Origin: a phage
Direction: 5' to 3' (one strand)
DNA length: 64,000 nucleotides
Assembly: GCA_011839185.1 (NCBI GenBank)
Contig: GCA_011839185.1_3918.1
This document shows positions 3,530-58,704 of this stretch, in pieces (the stretch's first letter is position 1; the number at the start of each line of letters is the position of its first letter). A model generated the notes under the pieces. That model searched no databases, was not told the DNA's origin, and was given only the letters and a program-made list of their open reading frames with translations. A program made the position numbers and the translations under genes.

Positions 3530-4630
3530 TTACTCATAATCCCTAATAACTAGCCCGACAGGGAACTGTAAAGAACCCTTACGAGTCATCTTCTGGAACT
3601 GTACCGTTAAAGGCTTCCCGATAAACTCTTCAGGATGCTCAGCAAGATACTGTTTCTTCTCGTGTGTAGTTTTCCATGAAACATCTACAAAGACGTTAGG
3701 AAGAGTCTCTACAACGAACTTACCATGACCACGTTTATCAGTCTTTACACCAGTCACTTTAAACTCTTCAGTGTGCATCTTCTTGTGCTTAATCAAGAAG
3801 TATGAACGGTGACCACACTCATAGAATGAGTTTTCAGAGATTGAACGGTACATTGCACCTTCAAACTTAGCTTCAACCCACTTATCATGAGCTTCATCAA
3901 ACTCTTCCCAAGAGTTAACACGGCGAGACTTGACAGGAACAACTTTACAGCCATCTCTAAAGTCATTCAATGGTGAAGTCTCAATAATATCTCTACGCTC
4001 AGGCCACGTCTTAGTACTGTCACAGATATCGTACCAGTAGAACTGGAGTAGATGTCGGTCTGGATTGTCAGCATTCTTAATCATAGACACAATATCTTCT
4101 AAGTCCCAACCGTGAGCATAAATCTCACCATCAAAGTCTTCGACTTGTGGGTGCAATTTAAGCAACAAAAGCAAATCTGGGATTAGTTCTGCTGGGACGT
4201 TGTAAACAGTATTCTCACGAGAGTAAGCCGTGAAACTAACTGAGTCATTATTTCTTGAAATTCTACAACGGACACCATCAAGTTTTGGTTGAGCATCAGC
4301 AGGAAATATCAAATACTTTGCATGACTAACCTTTGCAGCATCATGAGCAAGCTGTACACCTACCTTCTCAGTATTCTGTGCAGACTCTTTCGTGTAAGCA
4401 TAACCTTTACGGTCAACTTGCTTTTTATACTTAGCAGCAACTTCAAAGAGAGCTTGCTGTTCAGCGTTACGCTCATTCTTTTTACCGATGTTTTTAGGTT
4501 CTGCTGTATACTCTTCAAACATCATCTTGCCATTTTCTTTACCATACGTGGTAACAACTTTGTCACCTACAGCAACACATGACCAGACGTTGAAGGAGCC
4601 ATCTTTATTTTGTTTGTACAGAATTGTCAT
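3530..4630 (-). CDS. ATP-dependent DNA ligase
   Basis: Nucleotidyltransferase motif I KLDGVRC (KxDGxR); start set at second Met with GAGGT RBS. Confidence 0.7.
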   Translation of the reverse strand: MTILYKQNKDGSFNVWSCVAVGDKVVTTYGKENGKMMFEEYTAEPKNIGKKNERNAEQQALFEVAAKYKKQVDRKGYAYTKESAQNTEKVGVQLAHDAAKVSHAKYLIFPADAQPKLDGVRCRISRNNDSVSFTAYSRENTVYNVPAELIPDLLLLLKLHPQVEDFDGEIYAHGWDLEDIVSMIKNADNPDRHLLQFYWYDICDSTKTWPERRDIIETSPLNDFRDGCKVVPVKSRRVNSWEEFDEAHDKWVEAKFEGAMYRSISENSFYECGHRSYFLIKHKKMHTEEFKVTGVKTDKRGHGKFVVETLPNVFVDVSWKTTHEKKQYLAEHPEEFIGKPLTVQFQKMTRKGSLQFPVGLVIRDYE

Positions 4631-4835
4631 TTTTAACCTCTGAATGATACCAAGTATAACAAGCATTACATGCGTAAAGCTCTAAGTCATTTTTATCTGG
4701 TTTATGGAAACAGTTTGACCCACAACGACACCGGAATAGCTTACCATCAACACGAAGAATGAATGTTTCAAGCTCACCCTCTTCTGTAAGGACGGCGTTA
4801 TTATATTTGTTATCTTTATCCATTTGTACTCTCAC
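4605..4835 (-). CDS. small zinc-ribbon-like protein
   Basis: CRCGSNC ... CNAC cysteine pairs. Confidence 0.35.
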   Translation of the reverse strand: MRVQMDKDNKYNNAVLTEEGELETFILRVDGKLFRCRCGSNCFHKPDKNDLELYACNACYTWYHSEVKNDNSVQTK

Positions 4836-5586: not shown

Positions 5587-5820
5587 TCATATCAACTCCA
5601 GAATATCAATACGTTCACCCTTAAGGACTCCTGTACGGTCTCTTGCAATCTTACCGTCAACGATAAGGATATGCGCGACCTTTAAAGCCTCACGATTAAA
5701 ACCTTTTAAGAACTTGCTAGGCATCACGACAATGGACATCTCCTGAATCAACTCTGGAGTATAGCAATTGTCATGAAGTTGCTGAATAACGTCTGCAAGT
5801 GTCATTTTTGGTGTCTCCAA
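5587..5820 (-). CDS. hypothetical protein (77 aa)
   Basis: ORF only. Confidence 0.35.
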   Translation of the reverse strand: METPKMTLADVIQQLHDNCYTPELIQEMSIVVMPSKFLKGFNREALKVAHILIVDGKIARDRTGVLKGERIDILELI

Positions 5821-6011
5821 TACTCAATGTCAATAAGTTCTTGTGCAATGCTTTTCAGATTACCTTTCAAGAAAACCTTCTCAGAACCTGAAAGAGATGA
5901 ATTGTCAATTAACCTGTTCATTCTCTCAAACAACTTCTGCTTACGGTTCTTGATAGTTTCCTTTGAAGCACCTTTCATCATTGCTGCATGGGTTCTTCCA
6001 CGGTGACTCAT
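5802..6011 (-). CDS. hypothetical basic protein (69 aa)
   Basis: ORF only. Confidence 0.3.
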   Translation of the reverse strand: MSHRGRTHAAMMKGASKETIKNRKQKLFERMNRLIDNSSLSGSEKVFLKGNLKSIAQELIDIEYWRHQK

Positions 6012-6062
6012 AAGCCCTCCTATACAAGATGTAGTATAAGGTACTCTTCCCTGAGCACCTTG

Positions 6063-6614
6063 TCAACTTAGTTTTGCAAACTCTCCGTGGAGTTTAATAG
6101 CAGCTTCACAGTAAGCTTTATGGGCTTCTTCTGGTGTGTCAAACATACCAAGATGATAGTTTTTACCTTGTAAACGTATCATTGCTCGAAACCTTTTACT
6201 TATCTTCTGTACACCTTTTGGCAACCCAGATGGGGACTCTCTTGACCGATTGCAAGAGTTTTGTGAAGCTGTACAAACCCTTAAATTCAAGTACCTATTG
6301 TCCCAACCGTCCCCATTCTTATGGTCAACCTGTAAGGTTTTATCAGGTAGATATCCATCCATATACAAGATAACTAAACGATTTGCTTGGTAACCCCTTC
6401 CATCAATCAGCAACTGAACTGACTTGTGTCCATCAGTATTTGTTCTGTAGTTTCCAGCCCTCTTACCTCCAAATCTAGAGTTAAAGTTTGCATTACCTTC
6501 TCTAAACTTCCAAGTAAAGACCCCTGTTTCGGGGTCGTAGTCCAATAGCTCCTTAAGACGAATTTCTGTAATCATTTCAACACCATCAATGTACTTCCAA
6601 CCAGCTCTTACCAA
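6063..6614 (-). mobile_element. HNH homing endonuclease with AP2-like DNA-binding domain
   Basis: HNH motif LQVDHKNGDGWDNRYLNLRVCTASQNSCN; C-terminal EEAHKAYCEAAIKLHGEFAKL (AP2-like); sits immediately 3' of the DNA polymerase gene. Confidence 0.65.
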
Positions 6615-9285
6615 CCTTACCTGTGCCAGTTACAAGCGTCTCACTCTTCAAACCTAAATTCTTAGATGCCTGACCATACATCCAGTCAGTTATGGCTTTA
6701 ACTTCTTGAGTCATACTTTCTGGGCATTCCCAACTGTTTTCATCGTGGTATGCCAGCAAAAGCCTAGCACCAATTGCTGGTTTTCGTCCATTTAATTTTG
6801 TCAATCCTTCTTCACATGCTCTTCTACAAGCAAGGTTAATTGCCTCATTTTGAATCTGAGCCTCTGAACCCATGAGCAAATAATTCAATAACTTATGTGG
6901 AGATTTACACCACAACCAAGCTCCAGCAACCTTTACAAAACCCCCTTTAGAGATTGCAGCAGTCTTACCAAACACCTCTTCAAGTGCCTTTTTAGTTGCT
7001 TTGTAGTCAGCTTCCAAGTCATCTAGCAGCTTCTTAATTTTAGGCAAACGAATAAAGTAAGTCTGTTTAGTCAGCGCACCTTCCTGAGTAGTTGCAGCTT
7101 TAATCGTCTTAGCAAACTTTTCATCACCTGCACCGAACAGTAGTGCATAGATACCATTCTTAGCTTTCTTACGACCTTTGCTAATCTCATGAAGAAGATT
7201 CTCATCCTGAGTAGCTCGACAAGTCAAGATATCCTGCTCATCATTCAAGCTAAAGTAAATACTGTTCAGTGTATGTGCATCAGTCCCTGAATAGACAACG
7301 TACAGGTCATTCTCAGAGTCATAGCGAAGGTACTTATCAATCTCTGGGTTTAGGTACTCATCAAAATGTTTGCAGTAATAGCGTCCATCTTCTTGACGAA
7401 TAAACTCAATCTCTTCTTTACCTTGCGTTACCGCTTTGGTGAAGTCTTTGTCACCCATAAAGTTACAAAGGAGAACTAGCTGGGCTGAGTTCATGTCTAC
7501 AGAGACAACATTAGTACCTTCTTCACAAATCCACACTGCCCTCATTGGTTCCCCATAGACAGCAGCACCAGACGGTACGTTTACAATACCATATTGTGTC
7601 ATACGTCCAGTTGAAGTACCAAATACCATTGCACCAGCACTAAGGCGACCATCTGGACGAATCTGGTTCAGCCAACCTTTCTCGTCATCCTTTGAGTTCT
7701 CAATAGTTCTGCGTCTGTGCATCAAAGTGTAGTACTTAGCAATCTTCTGTCCAAGCTCACCTTCAATCGTATCATAAGATGATTCAGTAAGTTTTGGTGA
7801 AGTACGGATTAAGCAAGGTTCAAGCAAATCTGTGTATTTCTTCACGGACCAGTTATGCTCAATGTACTGAACACCTTCATGTTCAACATAACTCAAACCA
7901 CACCGCTCAACCATTTCCTGCCACTTAGGATGTTTTGTAATCATCTTTTTATTGTCTTTGAAACGACAAACTTTGACAGGGCGACCATCTGAGTCTTTCT
8001 TGTAGTTCCAGTCATCTGGAATCCAACCAACTGATTTCAAGTAGTCTTTAACAACTGCTACCTGAGTCATGCGAGAAACTTCGAACTCAATTGGTGTATA
8101 TGGTGCATCAATCAAACCTGTGTAGCGACTTGACTCAAGTTCAAAGTGGTTAACAACGTGACTGTTATAGTACTTCACAGTTTTGACTGTTTTCACTGGC
8201 TTCCAGTCTTTGCATTTCTTACCAATCTTTGCATTCAACTCATTGCAAATTGCACGAGCATCCTTCATTGCTACAAAGCCTTCCTTGTACTCTTCACCAG
8301 TTACAGAGTTGGTTGGGGTGTAGCAATTTCTCTTTTCAATGTTAAAAATCTTTGTAGTTGGCTTACCAAATGGCTTGATTTCGTATGTCTGCATCTCACC
8401 GTTACGTACCTGCTGACGGTACTTTGTCTTAGGGTACTTGGTAATTCTCTTCAGTCCATCTGCATGACCGAATGCTTCAACATACTCATTCCAAGCTTTT
8501 GCAAACTCTTCTCCAGTGACTTTACCTTTGGTCTTAATAGTTGGAGGTAGATGTGGTTCAACCTCTGAAGCAAGCTCATTAGTCAACTTGTCAAGCTCCT
8601 TTACATGGAACTCCATAAGCTCCTTATCAGCTTTCCAACCATTGATAGCTTGTTGACTCATCCAGAAAGATGTTTCTTTAGCTCGCATATAGGTTTCATA
8701 AGTATCTATGCCACACTTCTTAAGCTTGAGATACTCATTATCAAGTGCCCGTTTAGTTTTGGCGTTAATACGGATATCTTCTACAACACGAGTGAAGATT
8801 TCTGCATTCCACACACCCCAATGTTCAATCTCTGGTTTACGAACACCAACACGAGCACCCCATGCAGCCAAGCCATGAGCACCTTTATAGCCTTTTGGAG
8901 TTGGCCTATCCATCCACTGAACACGAGACTGAATAAGAGAATCCTGAAAGAAATTACTCCACGGCTTACATTTTGGATTATCAAAGTTCCATAAATCCGG
9001 TGCAATGTGATTGAAAACCCACCAGTCATAACCGAGGCCATTATGGATACAAAGTCGTTTTGCCTTTAACGCAAACTCAACACCTTCACGTAAACCACCC
9101 TTAATGTACTTAGTGTACTTGTGACCGAGGATAGGCTCATCTGTAAAGACCCATACAGGTGGCTCTTCATCGTCAGATTTATAGTCTGCAAAAGCCATTA
9201 CGTGAACTTTAGTGAACTCAAGGAGTAAACCATCAGTTTCTGTATCACCAACTAAATGTAAGTTTTTAAAATCTACGTTTTCCAT
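6586..9285 (-). CDS. DNA polymerase, family A, with 3'-5' exonuclease domain
   Basis: Exo motif VGDTETDG; pol motifs resembling A (VSVDMNSAQL), B (RKKAKNGIYALLFGAG) and C (YHDENS); start set at MENVDF with GGGAG RBS. Confidence 0.9.
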   Translation of the reverse strand: MENVDFKNLHLVGDTETDGLLLEFTKVHVMAFADYKSDDEEPPVWVFTDEPILGHKYTKYIKGGLREGVEFALKAKRLCIHNGLGYDWWVFNHIAPDLWNFDNPKCKPWSNFFQDSLIQSRVQWMDRPTPKGYKGAHGLAAWGARVGVRKPEIEHWGVWNAEIFTRVVEDIRINAKTKRALDNEYLKLKKCGIDTYETYMRAKETSFWMSQQAINGWKADKELMEFHVKELDKLTNELASEVEPHLPPTIKTKGKVTGEEFAKAWNEYVEAFGHADGLKRITKYPKTKYRQQVRNGEMQTYEIKPFGKPTTKIFNIEKRNCYTPTNSVTGEEYKEGFVAMKDARAICNELNAKIGKKCKDWKPVKTVKTVKYYNSHVVNHFELESSRYTGLIDAPYTPIEFEVSRMTQVAVVKDYLKSVGWIPDDWNYKKDSDGRPVKVCRFKDNKKMITKHPKWQEMVERCGLSYVEHEGVQYIEHNWSVKKYTDLLEPCLIRTSPKLTESSYDTIEGELGQKIAKYYTLMHRRRTIENSKDDEKGWLNQIRPDGRLSAGAMVFGTSTGRMTQYGIVNVPSGAAVYGEPMRAVWICEEGTNVVSVDMNSAQLVLLCNFMGDKDFTKAVTQGKEEIEFIRQEDGRYYCKHFDEYLNPEIDKYLRYDSENDLYVVYSGTDAHTLNSIYFSLNDEQDILTCRATQDENLLHEISKGRKKAKNGIYALLFGAGDEKFAKTIKAATTQEGALTKQTYFIRLPKIKKLLDDLEADYKATKKALEEVFGKTAAISKGGFVKVAGAWLWCKSPHKLLNYLLMGSEAQIQNEAINLACRRACEEGLTKLNGRKPAIGARLLLAYHDENSWECPESMTQEVKAITDWMYGQASKNLGLKSETLVTGTGKVGKSWLEVH

Positions 9286-9345
9286 TTTTACTCCCTCTAA
9301 AAGCATTAACCTCATACATTACTGCAAAAAATTATAAAAAGCAAG

Positions 9346-15152: not shown

Positions 15153-16193
15153 ATGGAGAAGTACACATTAACAAAGCTTCCCGATTCAGTTACACATGTC
15201 TTTATTGACTCTGATAGTATTGCCTATAAAGGTGCTTGTGTAGTTGAGAAAGCAAAGTATAAATACGTTAATAAACTCACAGCAGAAGAATCTGAACCAT
15301 TTGATAATGCGAAAGATGCTGCAAGATGGTTAGCAGACCAGAGAATCCTTGTGGAAGAGCTTGGCCTGACATTTGAGGAAGATGAATGGGAAAGACAAAC
15401 TTGGAAAGAAGCTAAGAGTGAAAAAGAAGCTATCATGGCTACTCAACAGGTGCTTCAGGAATGGCTTAAGATTGTTGGTAAAGAAAGAACTTGGGTAGGT
15501 TATTTAACAGAGAAGGGTGTGCATAAACATAAAGACATTAAAGGTCTTGAGCACCAATATCAAGGTAATCGTAAAGATGCTGTCACACCAACACACTTAG
15601 TCGCTTGTCGTGAATACCTTTTATCCAGACCAGAGTTCAAGCTCTTAAAGGGGGGCTTCGAAGCCGATTCAATCGTAATTGCTAAAGCTGAAAAGATGGG
15701 TAAGAAGGCTGCTCTTATGAGTATTGACAAAGACCTTCGACAAGCTGAAGGAACTTATTGTATTGATATGACTTATGAAAAATCACCACTAATCTTTATT
15801 GCTGATAACAATGTTGGTGATATCTGGGATTGTCCTATCAAATCAAAACCAAAAGCTGCAAAAACAGTTGGTGTAGGTTTTAAATTCTTGTGCTATCAGG
15901 CTGTTGCTGGAGATAATGCAGACAACTACTTCGGGCTTAAAGGTGCTGGTAAAGTGGCTGTGATGAATGCTTTAGATGGTAAAGAGACCTACAAAGAGTG
16001 TCTTGATGCTATCTATGAACTCTATGCTAAAAAAGACTCTTACACCTATGTATCATGGGATGGACAGACAGTTACAAAGACACCGTTAGAGCTAATGGAA
16101 CAGCATTTCTGGATAGCTTATCAAGAAAGAAATCCAAAAGATAATTTCTCTTTTAAGAAATATAATTGGGAGCCGTGTATGAATGAAGATTAA
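15153..16193 (+). CDS. 5'-3' exonuclease / flap endonuclease
   Basis: GFEADSIVIA (FEN GxEADD-like) and H3TH-like FGLKGAGKVAVMNAL. Confidence 0.7.
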   Translation: MEKYTLTKLPDSVTHVFIDSDSIAYKGACVVEKAKYKYVNKLTAEESEPFDNAKDAARWLADQRILVEELGLTFEEDEWERQTWKEAKSEKEAIMATQQVLQEWLKIVGKERTWVGYLTEKGVHKHKDIKGLEHQYQGNRKDAVTPTHLVACREYLLSRPEFKLLKGGFEADSIVIAKAEKMGKKAALMSIDKDLRQAEGTYCIDMTYEKSPLIFIADNNVGDIWDCPIKSKPKAAKTVGVGFKFLCYQAVAGDNADNYFGLKGAGKVAVMNALDGKETYKECLDAIYELYAKKDSYTYVSWDGQTVTKTPLELMEQHFWIAYQERNPKDNFSFKKYNWEPCMNED

Positions 16194-16680
16194 AGGATTT
16201 GGCAATTGCCCCACCTATGGTCATTGGGTGTCTTTATGTGGGGAAGTTGACCCCACTAAACATTTTGGTTTTGTCTATTTAGTACACTGTAAGAAAACCG
16301 GACAATATTATATCGGAAAGAAACAGCTTAATAGTGTGACTAAAAGAAAAGTTGCTGGCAAGACTCGGAAGAAGGTAGTCACTAAGGAGAGTGATTGGAT
16401 GACTTATGAAACTTCTTCTGAGTATATTAAAAAAGATATTGAGAGCTTTGGAAAAGAATTTTTTGACTTTTACATTATTCAGACCTACTACACAAAAGGT
16501 GGCCTAGTCTATGGTGAAGCAAATCTTCAACATAAATTCGATGTAATGACAAAAAGGATTGACTCTAAGCTCAGACTCTTTTACAATGCCAATATTGCAG
16601 CAATTAAGTTTATTACTAAAGAAACTTATGAAGATGCTGAAAAAAGAATCTATAAGGTAATGAAAGCAAACTGTGCTTGA
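16183..16680 (+). CDS. GIY-YIG domain protein (possible homing endonuclease)
   Basis: FVYLVHCKKTGQYYIGKK fits the GIY...YIG spacing. Confidence 0.45.
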   Translation: MKIKGFGNCPTYGHWVSLCGEVDPTKHFGFVYLVHCKKTGQYYIGKKQLNSVTKRKVAGKTRKKVVTKESDWMTYETSSEYIKKDIESFGKEFFDFYIIQTYYTKGGLVYGEANLQHKFDVMTKRIDSKLRLFYNANIAAIKFITKETYEDAEKRIYKVMKANCA

Positions 16681-26659: not shown

Positions 26660-27175
26660 ATGTACCTGTCAAATCTGAAACGTTCTGCTGCAATGTCAGT
26701 GTTAAGACTCAGTTTTGAGGAACGTCAAGAGTTCATTGACTCCCACCAATACGACCCTTCCAACTCCAATCACATGATTCTCTGGAATCGTGAGAGTACT
26801 CGTGAAAGAGCATTATTTCGATATTACCCACACTACACCATAGATAATCTGTATGAATGTTTTGTTGTGAAGAACACCATTACAGTACTCAATAAACTTT
26901 GCAGATACACAGGCAGTCAATCCTTCACATTAGGTCATCACAAACCTGTTACAAAAGGTGGTGAACATCACTGTGCAAACTGGTTTATCCAAACTAAAGC
27001 TGATAACCAGAAGCAAGGAGATAGCCTCCTAAGTATCCCTAAGATGACCTATGAAGAGCAAGAGAAATATATCAAAAATAATATGCCAGATGTGCTTGAC
27101 AACAACTATACAGATTTGGCAATATCTCTCCTGTTGAAGTTCGAGACAGTTTATAGGGCAACTTATAATGGCTAA
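26660..27175 (+). mobile_element. HNH endonuclease (free-standing)
   Basis: HHKPVTKGGEHHCANWFIQTKADNQKQGD resembles an HNH motif. Confidence 0.55.
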
Positions 27176-56277: not shown

Positions 56278-56306
56278 TTGACAATGTGTTTAATACCCTT
56301 TAATAT
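56278..56306 (+). promoter_or_regulatory. sigma70-like promoter upstream of tRNA cluster
   Basis: TTGACA, 17-nt spacer, TAATAT. Confidence 0.45.
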
Positions 56307-56423
56307 GTTCTACATAGAAACGAAATGAGAGCTTTTCTAAGATACTGAAAAATATTTTAAAAAGTTCTTGACAACCACTAAAAAATAATGTTAAAGTGGT
56401 TACATAGAGTTTGAAAAGTTTAT

Positions 56424-56497
56424 CTCTGTTTAGCTCAGCTTGGTAGAGCGTTCCGTTTGGGGCGGTAAGGCCGGAGGTTCAAGTCCTCCAACAGAGA
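56424..56497 (+). tRNA. tRNA-Pro (anticodon TGG)
   Basis: Cloverleaf by eye: acceptor ctctgtt/aacagag, anticodon loop tttgggg, T-loop ttcaagt, CCA encoded. Confidence 0.75.
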
Positions 56498-56507
56498 CCA
56501 AATTAAT

Positions 56508-56582
56508 GTTCCAGTGGACAAAATGGTAAAGTCACCACTCTTTCAAAGTGGATATTTGAGGGTTCAAATCCCTTCTGGAACG
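56508..56582 (+). tRNA. tRNA-Glu (anticodon TTC)
   Basis: Acceptor gttccag/ctggaac, anticodon loop ctttcaa, T-arm gaggg-ttcaaat-ccctt, CCA encoded. Confidence 0.75.
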
Positions 56583-56676
56583 CCAGTTTTGACAGAAGAC
56601 CAATTACAGCAAACTTAATCTTATTCATCTGAAGGTAAATCGGACAAAGAAGAGATTTGGTCTGGTCATTAAGAAT

Positions 56677-56750
56677 TGCGGGTATAGAGAAAGGGCGTCT
56701 CACATGTCTCATTAGCATGGTATCGGCAGGTTCGACTCCTGCACCCGCCT
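56677..56750 (+). tRNA. tRNA with CAT anticodon (Met or Ile-lysidine type)
   Basis: Anticodon loop ctcatta; 1-72 mismatch; T-arm gcagg-ttcgact-cctgc; CCA encoded. Confidence 0.6.
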
Positions 56751-56836
56751 CCAAATTTACAGAAGACCGTTTACAGCAATATTTATTAAATTTTTAGCGG
56801 AAAAATTGAAAGATACGGTCTGGTAATACTAAACAT

Positions 56837-56910
56837 GGTTAGGAAGCACATAAGGTATGTGCGGTCGCCTGTTAAGCGAATGGCACAGGGTTCGAATCCC
56901 TGACTAACCG
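56837..56910 (+). tRNA. tRNA-Asn (anticodon GTT)
   Basis: Anticodon loop ctgttaa; T-arm caggg-ttcgaat-ccctg; CCA encoded. Confidence 0.7.
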
Positions 56911-56982
56911 CCAAATTTAGGAGAGAAGCGATTGCTCACCGATTTGTAAGGTGCAAGTCCTTAGCCTGAATAGAAATCAAAT

Positions 56983-57067
56983 GTGTCGTTATCCCGTAGA
57001 TGGTAGCGGTGGGGACTGTAAATCCCTTGTCATTGAGACTCGGTAGGTTCGACTCCTACACGGCACA
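56983..57067 (+). tRNA. tRNA-Tyr (anticodon GTA), long variable arm
   Basis: 85 nt; anticodon loop ctgtaaa; acceptor gtgtcgt/acggcac; CCA encoded. Confidence 0.7.
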
Positions 57068-57075
57068 CCAATAAA

Positions 57076-57150
57076 GGTTATGTAGTTTAATTTGGTTAAA
57101 ATACTCCCCTGTCACGGGAGATGATGAGGGTTCAAATCCCTTCGTAACCG
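57076..57150 (+). tRNA. tRNA-Asp (anticodon GTC)
   Basis: Anticodon arm ctccc-ctgtcac-gggag; T-loop ttcaaat; CCA encoded. Confidence 0.7.
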
Positions 57151-57298
57151 CCAATTTTGAGAGGGCTATTTAGCCCCTCCCTTAAAGGGTTCTTACGAGT
57201 ATCCTTTAAAGGAGCAGAAGACCAAATACAGCAAGTTACTTAAAATTTCAAGCCAATTTAATTTTGAAAAATTTAAAACTTGGTCTGGCTCAACAAAT

Positions 57299-57432
57299 TT
57301 ACAGAAGACCGTTTACAGCAAAACTTAAACAATCTATTTCTCGGTAAAGAAAAGGCGAAGGTTCGATTCCTTCACTCGGCAGATGTCGAGTTGGTGTAAT
57401 GGTAGCACTTAAGATGATAAACAACGGTCTGG
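57299..57432 (+). ncRNA. candidate structured spacer RNA with tRNA-like T-arm (unit 4 of a repeated family)
   Basis: Conserved 5' box CAGAAGACCGTTTACAGCAA pairs with 3' ACGGTCTGG; contains canonical T-arm gaagg-ttcgatt-ccttc (57357-57373) without matching 5' acceptor, and a D-arm-like agttggtgtaatggtagcac. Confidence 0.4.
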
Positions 57433-57581
57433 TAATTATCTTTGTAGATAAGTTATTAAGCTTACCTGTGAGTATGCGACCACAAAGGGTGAAAGGGTAA
57501 ATTCTAGATTTAAACCTAAAAAGGCACATCGCTACAGACCTTAAGCAAGTCTGGGTAGCTTATCTACAAAGATAATTTAAT

Positions 57582-57654
57582 GGAAGTGTAGCAGAATGGT
57601 GATGCGGCAGACTTTTAATCTGACAGGCGATGGGTTCGAATCCCTCCACTTCTA
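57582..57654 (+). tRNA. tRNA-Lys (anticodon TTT)
   Basis: Anticodon loop cttttaa; acceptor ggaagtg/cacttct; weak T-stem; CCA encoded. Confidence 0.65.
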
Positions 57655-57735
57655 CCAAATTCACCCTTAACTGAGAAACACCTGCGCGGCTGGAAACACC
57701 CACTCAACAGTTTCTCTAACTAGGGTACTTATTCT

Positions 57736-57809
57736 GGTTCAGTCGCAGATAAGGTAATGCAAGGGTCTCATAAGCCCTATGAATGTGGGTTCGATTCCCA
57801 TCTGAACCT
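57736..57809 (+). tRNA. tRNA with CAT anticodon (Met or Ile-lysidine type)
   Basis: Anticodon arm agggt-ctcataa-gccct; acceptor ggttcag/ctgaacc; CCA encoded. Confidence 0.7.
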
Positions 57810-57828
57810 CCAATTCGTTGGTGATATT

Positions 57829-58314
57829 ATGTTTTGTGCTAATAAAGATTGTGACAACAAAGCCGTTAAAGGTGGAAAGTATTGTTCACGCTCTTGTGCT
57901 GCAAGGGTAAACAACAAGAGTCATCCAAAAAGAAGACAAGAAGGCTCTTGTCATTCATGTGGAAAGCAGACACCAAAATCAAGAAAGTATTGTGATGAAT
58001 GTATTTCAAATGGTATTCTGAAACAATACAAAAACCCCGATGAAGAAAAGAAAGCGAAGTCACAACACGTTAAAAAGTCTCGTGACAAACTTAAGAGGGT
58101 TTTAGTTGATTACAAAGGTGGTTGTTGCTCAATTTGTGGATACAATAAGTGCATAAAGGCTTTAGAGTTTCACCACTTAGACCCTAATACAAAGGACTTC
58201 ACAGTAGGACAAAAACACTTCTCTATAGAGGTAATGAAGTCTGAAGTTGATAAGTGTGTATTACTGTGTGCAAATTGCCACAGAGAGGTACACGAAGGGG
58301 TAACAAAGCTGTGA
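57829..58314 (+). mobile_element. HNH endonuclease nested between tRNA genes
   Basis: C-terminal CANCHREVHEG HNH/Zn motif and multiple CxxC pairs; start reset to ATG at 57829 (track start 57757 lies inside the tRNA). Confidence 0.6.
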
Positions 58315-58380
58315 AAGCACATATGGATGTGCATTCGGCTGATAACCGAAAGGCAGAAGGTTCGAATCCTTCTCACAGTA
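58308..58380 (+). tRNA. tRNA-Ile (anticodon GAT)
   Basis: Anticodon arm ttcgg-ctgataa-ccgaa; T-arm gaagg-ttcgaat-ccttc; 5' end overlaps the HNH stop codon. Confidence 0.7.
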
Positions 58381-58398
58381 CCAATTTCAATAAAGTTG

Positions 58399-58427
58399 TT
58401 GACATTGAGATGTGACTACTTTATAGT
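58399..58427 (+). promoter_or_regulatory. sigma70-like promoter inside tRNA cluster
   Basis: TTGACA, 17-nt spacer, TATAGT. Confidence 0.45.
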
Positions 58428-58630
58428 AACCTTAGTTTTCGTTGCGTAGCGTCTATTTTGCAAATTTAAAATAAATGCAAACGACAATGTTTTTCTGGCA
58501 GTAGCTTGATAGGCTAAACACCAGTGAGGTCTTCCAATCCCTCATCAAAGAATTTGGCGTACTCGCCCACGGTATGATTAATAAGGTGGGCATCTTTAAG
58601 GGCTTTCTAAGAGAGTCTTTAAAGATTAAT

Positions 58631-58704
58631 GCACCCTTAGTTCAACTGGACAGAGCAAATGACTTCTAATCATTGAGTTACAGGTTCGAATCCTGTAGGG
58701 TGTG
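58631..58704 (+). tRNA. tRNA-Arg (anticodon TCT)
   Basis: Anticodon arm aatga-cttctaa-tcatt; acceptor gcaccct/agggtgt; CCA encoded. Confidence 0.75.

Follow-up and report, generated by a model that had tools for sequence, protein, structure and literature searches.

Endonuclease genes that live in the tRNA clusters of phages, and shuffle them, are established from phages T4 and T5, and HNH genes within such clusters have been remarked on in surveys (PMC6409571). The best described case is segB of T4. Its product is a proven homing endonuclease, the tRNA genes that flank it are inherited together with it, and the tRNA T-loop motif forms part of the site that the enzyme recognizes (PMC2330249). 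segB is expressed from a tRNA precursor, and maturation of this RNA has been proposed to sever the stop codon from the last sense codon; such removal of the stop by tRNA processing is a negative control proposed both for segB and for the T5 enzymes (PMC2330249). The T5 HNH genes have been described as encoding site-specific endonucleases and as the chief source of variation among T5-like genomes (PMC10644984). A third group, the free-standing homing endonucleases T4 MobE and other Mob HNH proteins, is of the PF01844 class and lies between conserved phage genes (PMC2790892); these enzymes fall in the same His-Me finger group 1 as the T5 enzyme F-TflIV (PMC5714182). For Felix O1, the genome paper of 2010 already recorded six HNH genes (PMC3185647). 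Here we analyze a 64,000-nucleotide stretch of phage DNA (GenBank assembly GCA_011839185.1, contig GCA_011839185.1_3918.1; hereafter, the window), in which an open reading frame (ORF) for an HNH protein stands between a tRNA-Met and a tRNA-Ile gene. Judged by sequence comparison and by analogy with T4 and T5, this ORF is most probably a free-standing HNH homing-endonuclease gene of the Felix O1-like tRNA cluster.

The closest described gene is ORF44 of Felix O1 (Felix01p085, NP_944863.2, annotated 'HNH endonuclease'), an orthologue at the identical tRNA-Met/tRNA-Ile site. Like the window gene, it encodes 161 amino acids, overlaps tRNA-Ile by 7 nt and shares 81% amino acid identity; it differs in belonging to another clade (85% DNA identity), and its RefSeq record has no annotated upstream tRNA-Met. 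SegB also resembles the window gene, in being free-standing, inside a phage tRNA cluster and missing from close relatives. However, SegB combines a GIY-YIG nuclease with NUMOD3 DNA-binding motifs, whereas the window protein pairs an HNH domain with two zinc ribbons at its N terminus, and neither Pfam nor PHROG gave a GIY-YIG match in it. Because SegB is a GIY-YIG enzyme, we regard it as an analogue, not a homologue; its activity is proven, whereas that of the window protein is predicted by analogy. The HNH endonucleases of the T5 tRNA region (hegA-E; F-TflI, II and IV; Akulenko et al., 2004) are likewise scattered through a tRNA cluster, and two of the genes share bases with the tRNA downstream (14 nt for hegC, 23 nt for hegD), as the window ORF does with fewer. 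As homologues the T5 heg genes were rejected, with BLASTP giving E = 0.013 over 55 residues for hegA and E > 1 for the others. Other Demerecviridae (NBSal005 and VCPH), unlike T5, do carry true homologues. The Mob HNH enzymes differ in domain architecture and lie between protein-coding genes rather than tRNAs. By these analogies the window gene looks like an ordinary mobile homing-endonuclease gene of the kind known from T4 and T5. Its significance is correspondingly limited, the Felix O1 orthologue being annotated already and the habit of such enzymes being established.

An HNH ORF That Borrows Its Stop Codon from tRNA-Ile

The window phage is a Felixounavirus (Ounavirinae; a Felix O1-like myovirus). 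The region is matched by 266 GenBank phage records, nearly all of them from Felix O1-like myoviruses (Ounavirinae, Felixounavirus). Escherichia phage KEP3 comes closest at this locus, with 98.5% identity over 1.3 kb. Twenty-six tRNA genes, every one on the plus strand, are clustered at 56424-62203. The two that flank the HNH ORF, a tRNA-Met(CAT) that is 97-100% identical in all 15 relatives compared and a tRNA-Ile(GAT) of a type we call allele A (Table 1), are both complete and intact; the ORF is thus intergenic and not part of an intron or intein. The Rfam tRNA spans at these two positions, 57736-57809 and 58308-58380, exclude the CCA ends.

The longest mechanical ORF, 57757-58314, begins upstream of the conserved start. 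Because all 10 homologous loci share the ATG at 57829, we take the protein to start there, 17 nt past the tRNA-Met CCA, and to be 161 amino acids long. The sequence GGTGATA, which contains the Shine-Dalgarno-like element, is conserved in all 10 HNH-carrying loci. At its other end the ORF has no stop codon of its own: the TGA at 58312-58314 is supplied by tRNA-Ile, of which it forms nucleotides 5-7, and the two genes overlap by 7 nt. A first-pass annotation, made from the window's letters alone, had placed the start about 20 nt after the tRNA at 57736-57809 and the stop inside the first bases of the Ile tRNA, and had read the motif CANCHREVHEG in the translation. All of this proved accurate, the ATG lying 20 nt past position 57809. 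The gene is often mis-called in relatives, being left unannotated or extended into tRNA-Met. Allele A of tRNA-Ile has an A at position 8 (58315; GCTGTGA-AA-GCAC), where U8 is nearly always found in tRNAs; the two alternative alleles, B and C, have the canonical U8-A9, and the Rfam tRNA model nonetheless recognizes allele A at 60 bits.

Table 1. Features of the window, in order of position
Feature	Position	Strand	Basis and details
HNH_3 + AP2 endonuclease gene	6063-6614	-	Pfam; PHROG 99 E=2e-60; abuts 3' end of DNA polymerase gene
SegE-like GIY-YIG ORF, catalytic domain only	16183-16680	+	Pfam PF19835 SegE_GIY-YIG E=9e-28
ORF, function unassigned, weak HNH similarity	26660-27175	+	phrog_3500 (unknown function) E=6e-92; phrog_2214 (HNH) E=1.3e-4
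Promoter-like site TTGACA-18-TAAAGT, TG extension	56368-56397	+	Consensus scan; ahead of first tRNA
tRNA-Met(CAT)	57736-57812	+	ARAGORN; Rfam tRNA 55.6 bits; upstream neighbour of HNH ORF
Inserted segment, 493 nt	57814-58306	+	Comparison with REP5 and BPS17L1 empty sites
Shine-Dalgarno-like GGTGAT	57820-57825	+	3 nt ahead of ATG; read from sequence
HNH endonuclease ORF, 161 aa	57829-58314	+	PHROG 2255 E=2e-33
Two predicted N-terminal four-cysteine zinc ribbons	57835-58002	+	C3, C8, C19, C23; C41, C44, C55, C58
HNH (beta-beta-alpha-metal) catalytic domain	58117-58296	+	C100, C103; H115-H116; C147, N149, C150, H151; H155
tRNA-Ile(GAT) allele A	58308-58383	+	ARAGORN; Rfam 60 bits; downstream neighbour of HNH ORF
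Promoter-like site TTGACA-17-TATAGT, 11/12 matches	58399-58427	+	Consensus scan; just past tRNA-Ile

The HNH ORF is not a chance reading frame, because its product matches PHROG 2255 and has 2,492 homologues at E < 1e-5 in a large protein database; a further PHROG HNH family matches at E = 3e-24. In an alignment of 33 full-length homologues, the eight cysteines of the two zinc ribbons, a presumed DNA-binding module, are invariant. So are H115-H116 and H151 of the catalytic domain, N149 and H155 being nearly so. The CxxC pairs C100/C103 and C147/C150, which form a structural zinc site and bracket the HNH motif, are invariant as well, making 12 invariant cysteines in total. The AlphaFold model is confident (mean pLDDT 92) and has the strand-strand-helix at residues 112-156, and the fold of the C-terminal domain matches the HNH domains of Cap5, Cas9, ZRANB3, McrA and Gme HNH. 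A sequence search of the PDB returned nothing significant (best E = 0.06, to the HNH of a group II intron maturase), and neither sequence nor fold searches found a solved structure that shares the whole architecture of zinc ribbons plus HNH. By its residues, its PHROG matches and its model, the protein qualifies as an HNH/His-Me finger nuclease of the PF01844 class, with a predicted activity. The ratio of nonsynonymous to synonymous divergence (dN/dS, Nei-Gojobori) is 0.05-0.20 within and between the two clades of the gene described below, and the protein is therefore under purifying selection.

An HNH nuclease need not be mobile. The protein could be a housekeeping enzyme of phage DNA metabolism, associated with the terminase or nicking the genome in the manner of T5 SciA, and the Gme and GVE2 HNH nickases do resemble it, to a comparably weak degree. 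That similarity, however, is confined to the generic HNH core, the gene lies in the tRNA cluster away from the terminase and replication genes, and most of the genus does without it, so that it cannot be essential; we consider this explanation highly improbable. Its terminase-associated form, on the model of HK97 gp74, was ruled out by the tRNA-cluster location and by absence from about 95% of relatives.

Precise Empty Sites and a Patchy Distribution

In two relatives that lack the gene, the flanking tRNAs are separated by only two nucleotides: AA in REP5 (CCTCCA-AA-GCTGTG) and AT in BPS17L1 (CCTCCA-AT-GCTGTG). The left edge of the insertion site is the tRNA-Met 3' CCA plus an A (57810-57813). 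A direct microrepeat, CAA, lies on both sides of the insert, at 57811-57813 and 58304-58306, and because of it the insert boundary is ambiguous by 3-4 nt. The cassette thus delimited begins with a 15-nt leader that holds the ribosome-binding site and continues with the ORF as far as the third codon from its end (AAG, which the boundary splits). The rest, G-CTG-TGA, is given by tRNA-Ile itself: the final base of AAG, the last sense codon and the stop.

A first search found the HNH part covered in 11 of the 266 records. By a distant DNA search together with tblastn, the gene is present in 12 Ounavirinae records out of about 263 that are related; Felix O1 or FO1a accounts for three of the 12, and the copy in Henu12 is truncated by the end of its contig. 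About 95% of related records lack the gene. Such sporadic presence, combined with precise empty sites, is the pattern expected of a free-standing homing endonuclease gene.

The same pattern might arise by loss. On this alternative, the HNH ORF belongs to the resident accessory genes of one sub-lineage, in which it is passed on vertically, has been deleted repeatedly elsewhere through microhomology, and is not, or no longer, homing; the CAA repeats that flank the insert make precise deletion mechanistically easy. The divergence of the copies speaks against it. They form two clades, 85% identical in DNA and 81% in protein, with a synonymous divergence (dS) of about 0.5: clade 1 comprises the window, KEP3 (100% identical), Henu11 (98%) and Henu12, and clade 2 comprises Felix O1, garuso, Sl26, L27, S.Kent and others. 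These clades sit in backbones that are 96-99% identical, beside flanking tRNAs that are identical between them, and it is because of this mismatch that we read a signal of mobility. Nor does clade membership follow the neighboring sequence. A 78-nt indel in the spacer between tRNA-Lys and tRNA-Met is independent of it, and both clades adjoin both versions of the spacer, which is not what a resident gene would lead one to expect. In addition, strong purifying selection on a gene that most relatives lack fits a selfish nuclease, which would have to stay active in order to spread.

Two of the ten copies, in MET-P1-301 and OPT-SAL01, are frameshifted by the same 1-nt deletion in an A-run at about codon 73, which shortens the protein to 87 amino acids. 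Shared decay of this sort suits a resident gene; it also fits the late stage of a homing gene's life cycle, and it could be either true decay or a homopolymer sequencing error.

The remaining support for a resident gene comes from the adjacent tRNA. The tRNA-Ile(GAT) slot after tRNA-Met is occupied by one of three alleles, 62-67% identical to one another. Their frequencies are similar: 47 records have A, 111 have B and 105 have C. All 10 HNH loci that were checked carry allele A. If all 12 are taken as A, the gene is present in 12 of 47 allele-A records versus none of the 216 with B or C (Fisher p = 3e-10, or 5e-8 once duplicate records are removed, both values ignoring phylogeny). Confinement to allele-A genomes is what vertical descent in one sub-lineage would produce. 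It would also fit an enzyme that needs the tRNA-Met/tRNA-Ile(A) junction as its target, or a gene that travels together with allele A. Taking the evidence of this section together with the scatter of the family over differing inter-tRNA positions in unrelated phages, described below, we think it unlikely that the HNH ORF is a resident gene, and we favor a homing endonuclease.

Several points weigh against this preference. The link to allele A could be mere shared ancestry of a sub-lineage, the counts including duplicate Felix O1 records. Slippage at the CAA microrepeat could also make 'empty' sites, so presence and absence alone are no proof of gain by homing. The 98% identical copy in Henu11 was rejected as a recent HNH-specific transfer, the entire tRNA cluster there being 90-100% identical. 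The protein's match to Pfam HNH PF01844 is below threshold (14.1 bits against a cut-off of 21.4); with Pfam matches sub-threshold, it was placed by PHROGs and by the homologue search. Its fold-search scores are low, because the HNH domain is small, about 55 residues. A literature search found no experimental paper on cleavage, target or inheritance bias for this protein or for Felix O1 ORF44. Finally, the promoter and RNase P arguments set out below are inferred from consensus scans and the T4 literature.

Henu11 is a Mooglevirus. Compared with window positions 56300-59400, its upstream backbone genes are 71-78% identical and its whole tRNA cluster about 90-100%, which suggests either that the whole cluster has been exchanged between genera or that it is strongly conserved.

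The slots for Pro, Asp, Ala, Thr, Leu-TAG and Arg-TCT hold alternative, highly divergent cassettes in the 15 relatives, or are missing there. This points to cassette-like exchange of individual tRNA genes. The whole tRNA cluster is a recombination mosaic.

Probable Expression from the tRNA Precursor and a Proposed Route of Spread

Consensus scanning found no plus-strand promoter-like site between a weak one at 56756-56783 (9/12 matches) and the HNH ORF, and no hairpin of the kind proposed for segB lies over the ribosome-binding site (fold z = +0.64). Because of these two results, the ORF is most likely translated from the polycistronic tRNA precursor. The promoter-like site that begins at 56368 is the likely source of the transcript; another is found at 56278, also ahead of the first tRNA, and both are stronger than the one at 56756-56783. 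The site just past tRNA-Ile, whose sequence is conserved in the relatives compared, would make the HNH ORF and tRNA-Ile the last members of the first tRNA transcription unit. Because promoter-like sites in total are not above shuffled expectation, we only infer these promoter roles.

These considerations suggest the following model. The ORF, having no promoter of its own, would be transcribed within the polycistronic tRNA precursor, and its translation from the GGTGAT ribosome-binding site would precede processing. RNase P cleavage at the 5' end of tRNA-Ile (58307/58308) would then remove the stop codon and so keep the enzyme low. In a mixed infection, the enzyme would nick or cut the intact tRNA-Met/tRNA-Ile(A) junction, or tRNA sequence nearby, in a relative that lacks the gene. 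Recombinational repair off the HNH-carrying genome would copy the gene, and probably the adjacent tRNA-Ile allele too, into the recipient; the carrier genome, its site interrupted by the insertion, would be immune. The first-pass annotation had seen in such genes candidates for ongoing gene conversion and marker exclusion between co-infecting relatives, a reasonable suggestion by analogy with T4 SegB (PMC2330249).

A Protein Family at Phage tRNA Clusters

The tRNA neighborhood of the window gene is typical of its family. Among the 80 closest relatives in IMG/VR, a tRNA lies within 1.5 kb of the gene in 73 of the 80 viral contigs, and the stop codon falls inside the same-strand downstream tRNA in 32 of the 61 loci that have one. 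These counts include close relatives and are not phylogenetically independent. When the overlapping loci are reduced to 24 distinct junctions, the stop is TAG at tRNA positions 8-10 (U8-A9-G10) in 13, and it lies at positions 9-11 in two more. Because overlaps of this kind recur, ending in a tRNA is a feature of the subfamily and not a local accident in the window. The commonest neighbor is tRNA-Asn(GTT), which makes up 19 of the 45 downstream tRNAs that lie close and 22 of the 53 that are nearest on the upstream side. tRNA-Asn is also the preferred target of SegB in T2L.

Unrelated phages show the same habit. In Tequintavirus NBSal005 and Vibrio phage VCPH, homologues with 38-41% identity are wedged into the tRNA cluster: the VCPH ORF begins 14 nt past one tRNA, and both ORFs end 10 nt into the next. 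The three metagenomic homologues that were looked up all lie among tRNAs. Within Felix O1, the paralogues ORF45 and ORF47 (46% and 37% identical in the HNH part) occupy other inter-tRNA positions. ORF45 follows tRNA-Ile and ORF47 lies between tRNA-Gly and tRNA-Thr (Felix O1 locus 4330-4722 and 5640-6053); the window has neither. Typing phage 15 and BPS17L1 have a 405-nt coding sequence ahead of tRNA-Ser (typing phage 15 locus 3991-4480), which in typing phage 15 is preceded by an extra tRNA-Trp; both the coding sequence and the extra tRNA are absent from the window.

We tentatively suggest that these proteins may form a large, uncharacterized HNH subfamily, with two zinc ribbons and an HNH domain, that is specialized for phage tRNA clusters. 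Its genes would insert at the 5' edge of a tRNA, often tRNA-Asn; they would lack a stop codon and end on U8-A9-G10 of the tRNA (in the window, on a TGA at nucleotides 5-7), which would place them under the control of RNase P. By cutting tRNA genes, the enzymes might drive cassette exchange of the sort seen in the A, B and C alleles of tRNA-Ile, as an HNH counterpart of SegB. The broader pattern, namely the tRNA-cluster habit, the U8-A9-G10 stops and the link to one tRNA-Ile allele, could explain how phage tRNA repertoires are reshuffled.

So strong an association with tRNAs also raises the question of whether the nuclease has been domesticated, cutting tRNA genes to the phage's benefit so that cassettes are rearranged or amplified against host defenses that target tRNAs, as with SegB of T4 and T6. 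SegB drives segmental amplification of the tRNA-Tyr locus, allowing escape from Septu, and SegB homologues are enriched near tRNAs (PMC13096335). Alternative divergent cassettes in the Ile slot and in the Pro, Asp, Ala, Thr, Leu-TAG and Arg-TCT slots would be in keeping with such a role. We nevertheless regard domestication as improbable, more so than a resident gene: the gene is missing from this site in about 95% of related records and is thus not required; the window has no duplicated tRNA segments beside it; and the enzyme whose benefit was demonstrated in T6 is of the GIY-YIG type, not of this HNH family. A homing endonuclease remains our preferred explanation of the window ORF.

The Other Endonuclease-like ORFs of the Window

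The first-pass annotation had grouped the HNH gene with three other ORFs as free-standing, homing-type insertions at conserved loci. Only two of the four stand as such, the tRNA-locus HNH (12 of about 263) and the HNH-AP2 gene that abuts the DNA polymerase gene. The window's HNH-AP2 allele with its flanks is covered to at least 80% in 25 of 243 relatives. The GIY-YIG ORF with its flanks reaches that coverage in 172 of 227, and the region of the ORF at 26660-27175 in 194 of 224; both were rejected as sporadic insertions, being near-universal in the genus, and they look like resident genes with no sign of current mobility. The comparison of insertion sites with gene-less relatives, proposed at the outset, bore out both mobile candidates: besides the empty tRNA sites of REP5 and BPS17L1, there is an empty HNH-AP2 site in wV8, with about 10 nt instead of about 520. 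Rather than occupying identical positions in all relatives with degenerate motifs, the two genes are sporadic. Both loci are presence/absence hot spots that distort alignments and phylogenies, and knowing them is useful for comparing and engineering Felix O1-like therapeutic phages.

The HNH_3 domain of the HNH-AP2 gene scores 45.4 bits (cut-off 24.8) and its AP2 domain 26.6 bits (E = 7.5e-6), below the cut-off of 33.3. As called mechanically, the gene begins inside the DNA polymerase ORF (6586-9315) and shares the final 29 nt of that ORF. On its distribution and domains, it is a second sporadic, homing-type gene (HNH_3 plus AP2, the I-HmuI class). FO1a carries another allele, gp94, 43% identical to the window protein. 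The last 28 residues of the two (window 6063-6150; FO1a gp94 locus 801-890) are identical or nearly so, and the DNA encoding them is nearly identical, which suggests a recombination breakpoint inside the endonuclease gene.

As for the GIY-YIG ORF, the four records listed at 67% coverage all keep it, and SUSP2 and EcSzw_1 match the upstream flank only. The junction ahead of it, between an exonuclease gene and the GIY-YIG ORF at about 16180, has about 490 extra bases in BPS15Q2, ASO1B, LF110P2 and LF82P5, and an HNH endonuclease is annotated there in BPS15Q2, ASO1B, Mushroom, CRP22, HMD-P8 and GEC_vB_NS7. The window has no insert at this junction, which looks like a further polymorphic site of endonuclease insertion.

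Further elements were seen in the tRNA cluster itself. It contains two protein ORFs, 60285-60842 (185 amino acids), conserved in relatives as a 'phage conserved protein', and 61231-62028 (265 amino acids), a putative membrane protein in the garuso annotation. The 78-nt spacer between tRNA-Lys and tRNA-Met (57658-57735) stands in place of a 4-nt spacer in Felix O1 and REP5, and its presence is independent of the HNH gene. Rfam had no family for this or the other cluster spacers. It folds as a strong stem-loop (-21 kcal/mol, z = -4.3), and the Henu11 spacer keeps the stem by two compensatory pair changes (GAGAAAC/GTTTCTC to GAAGAAC/GTTCTTC). The spacer may represent a small stable RNA of the type present in the T4 and T5 tRNA clusters.

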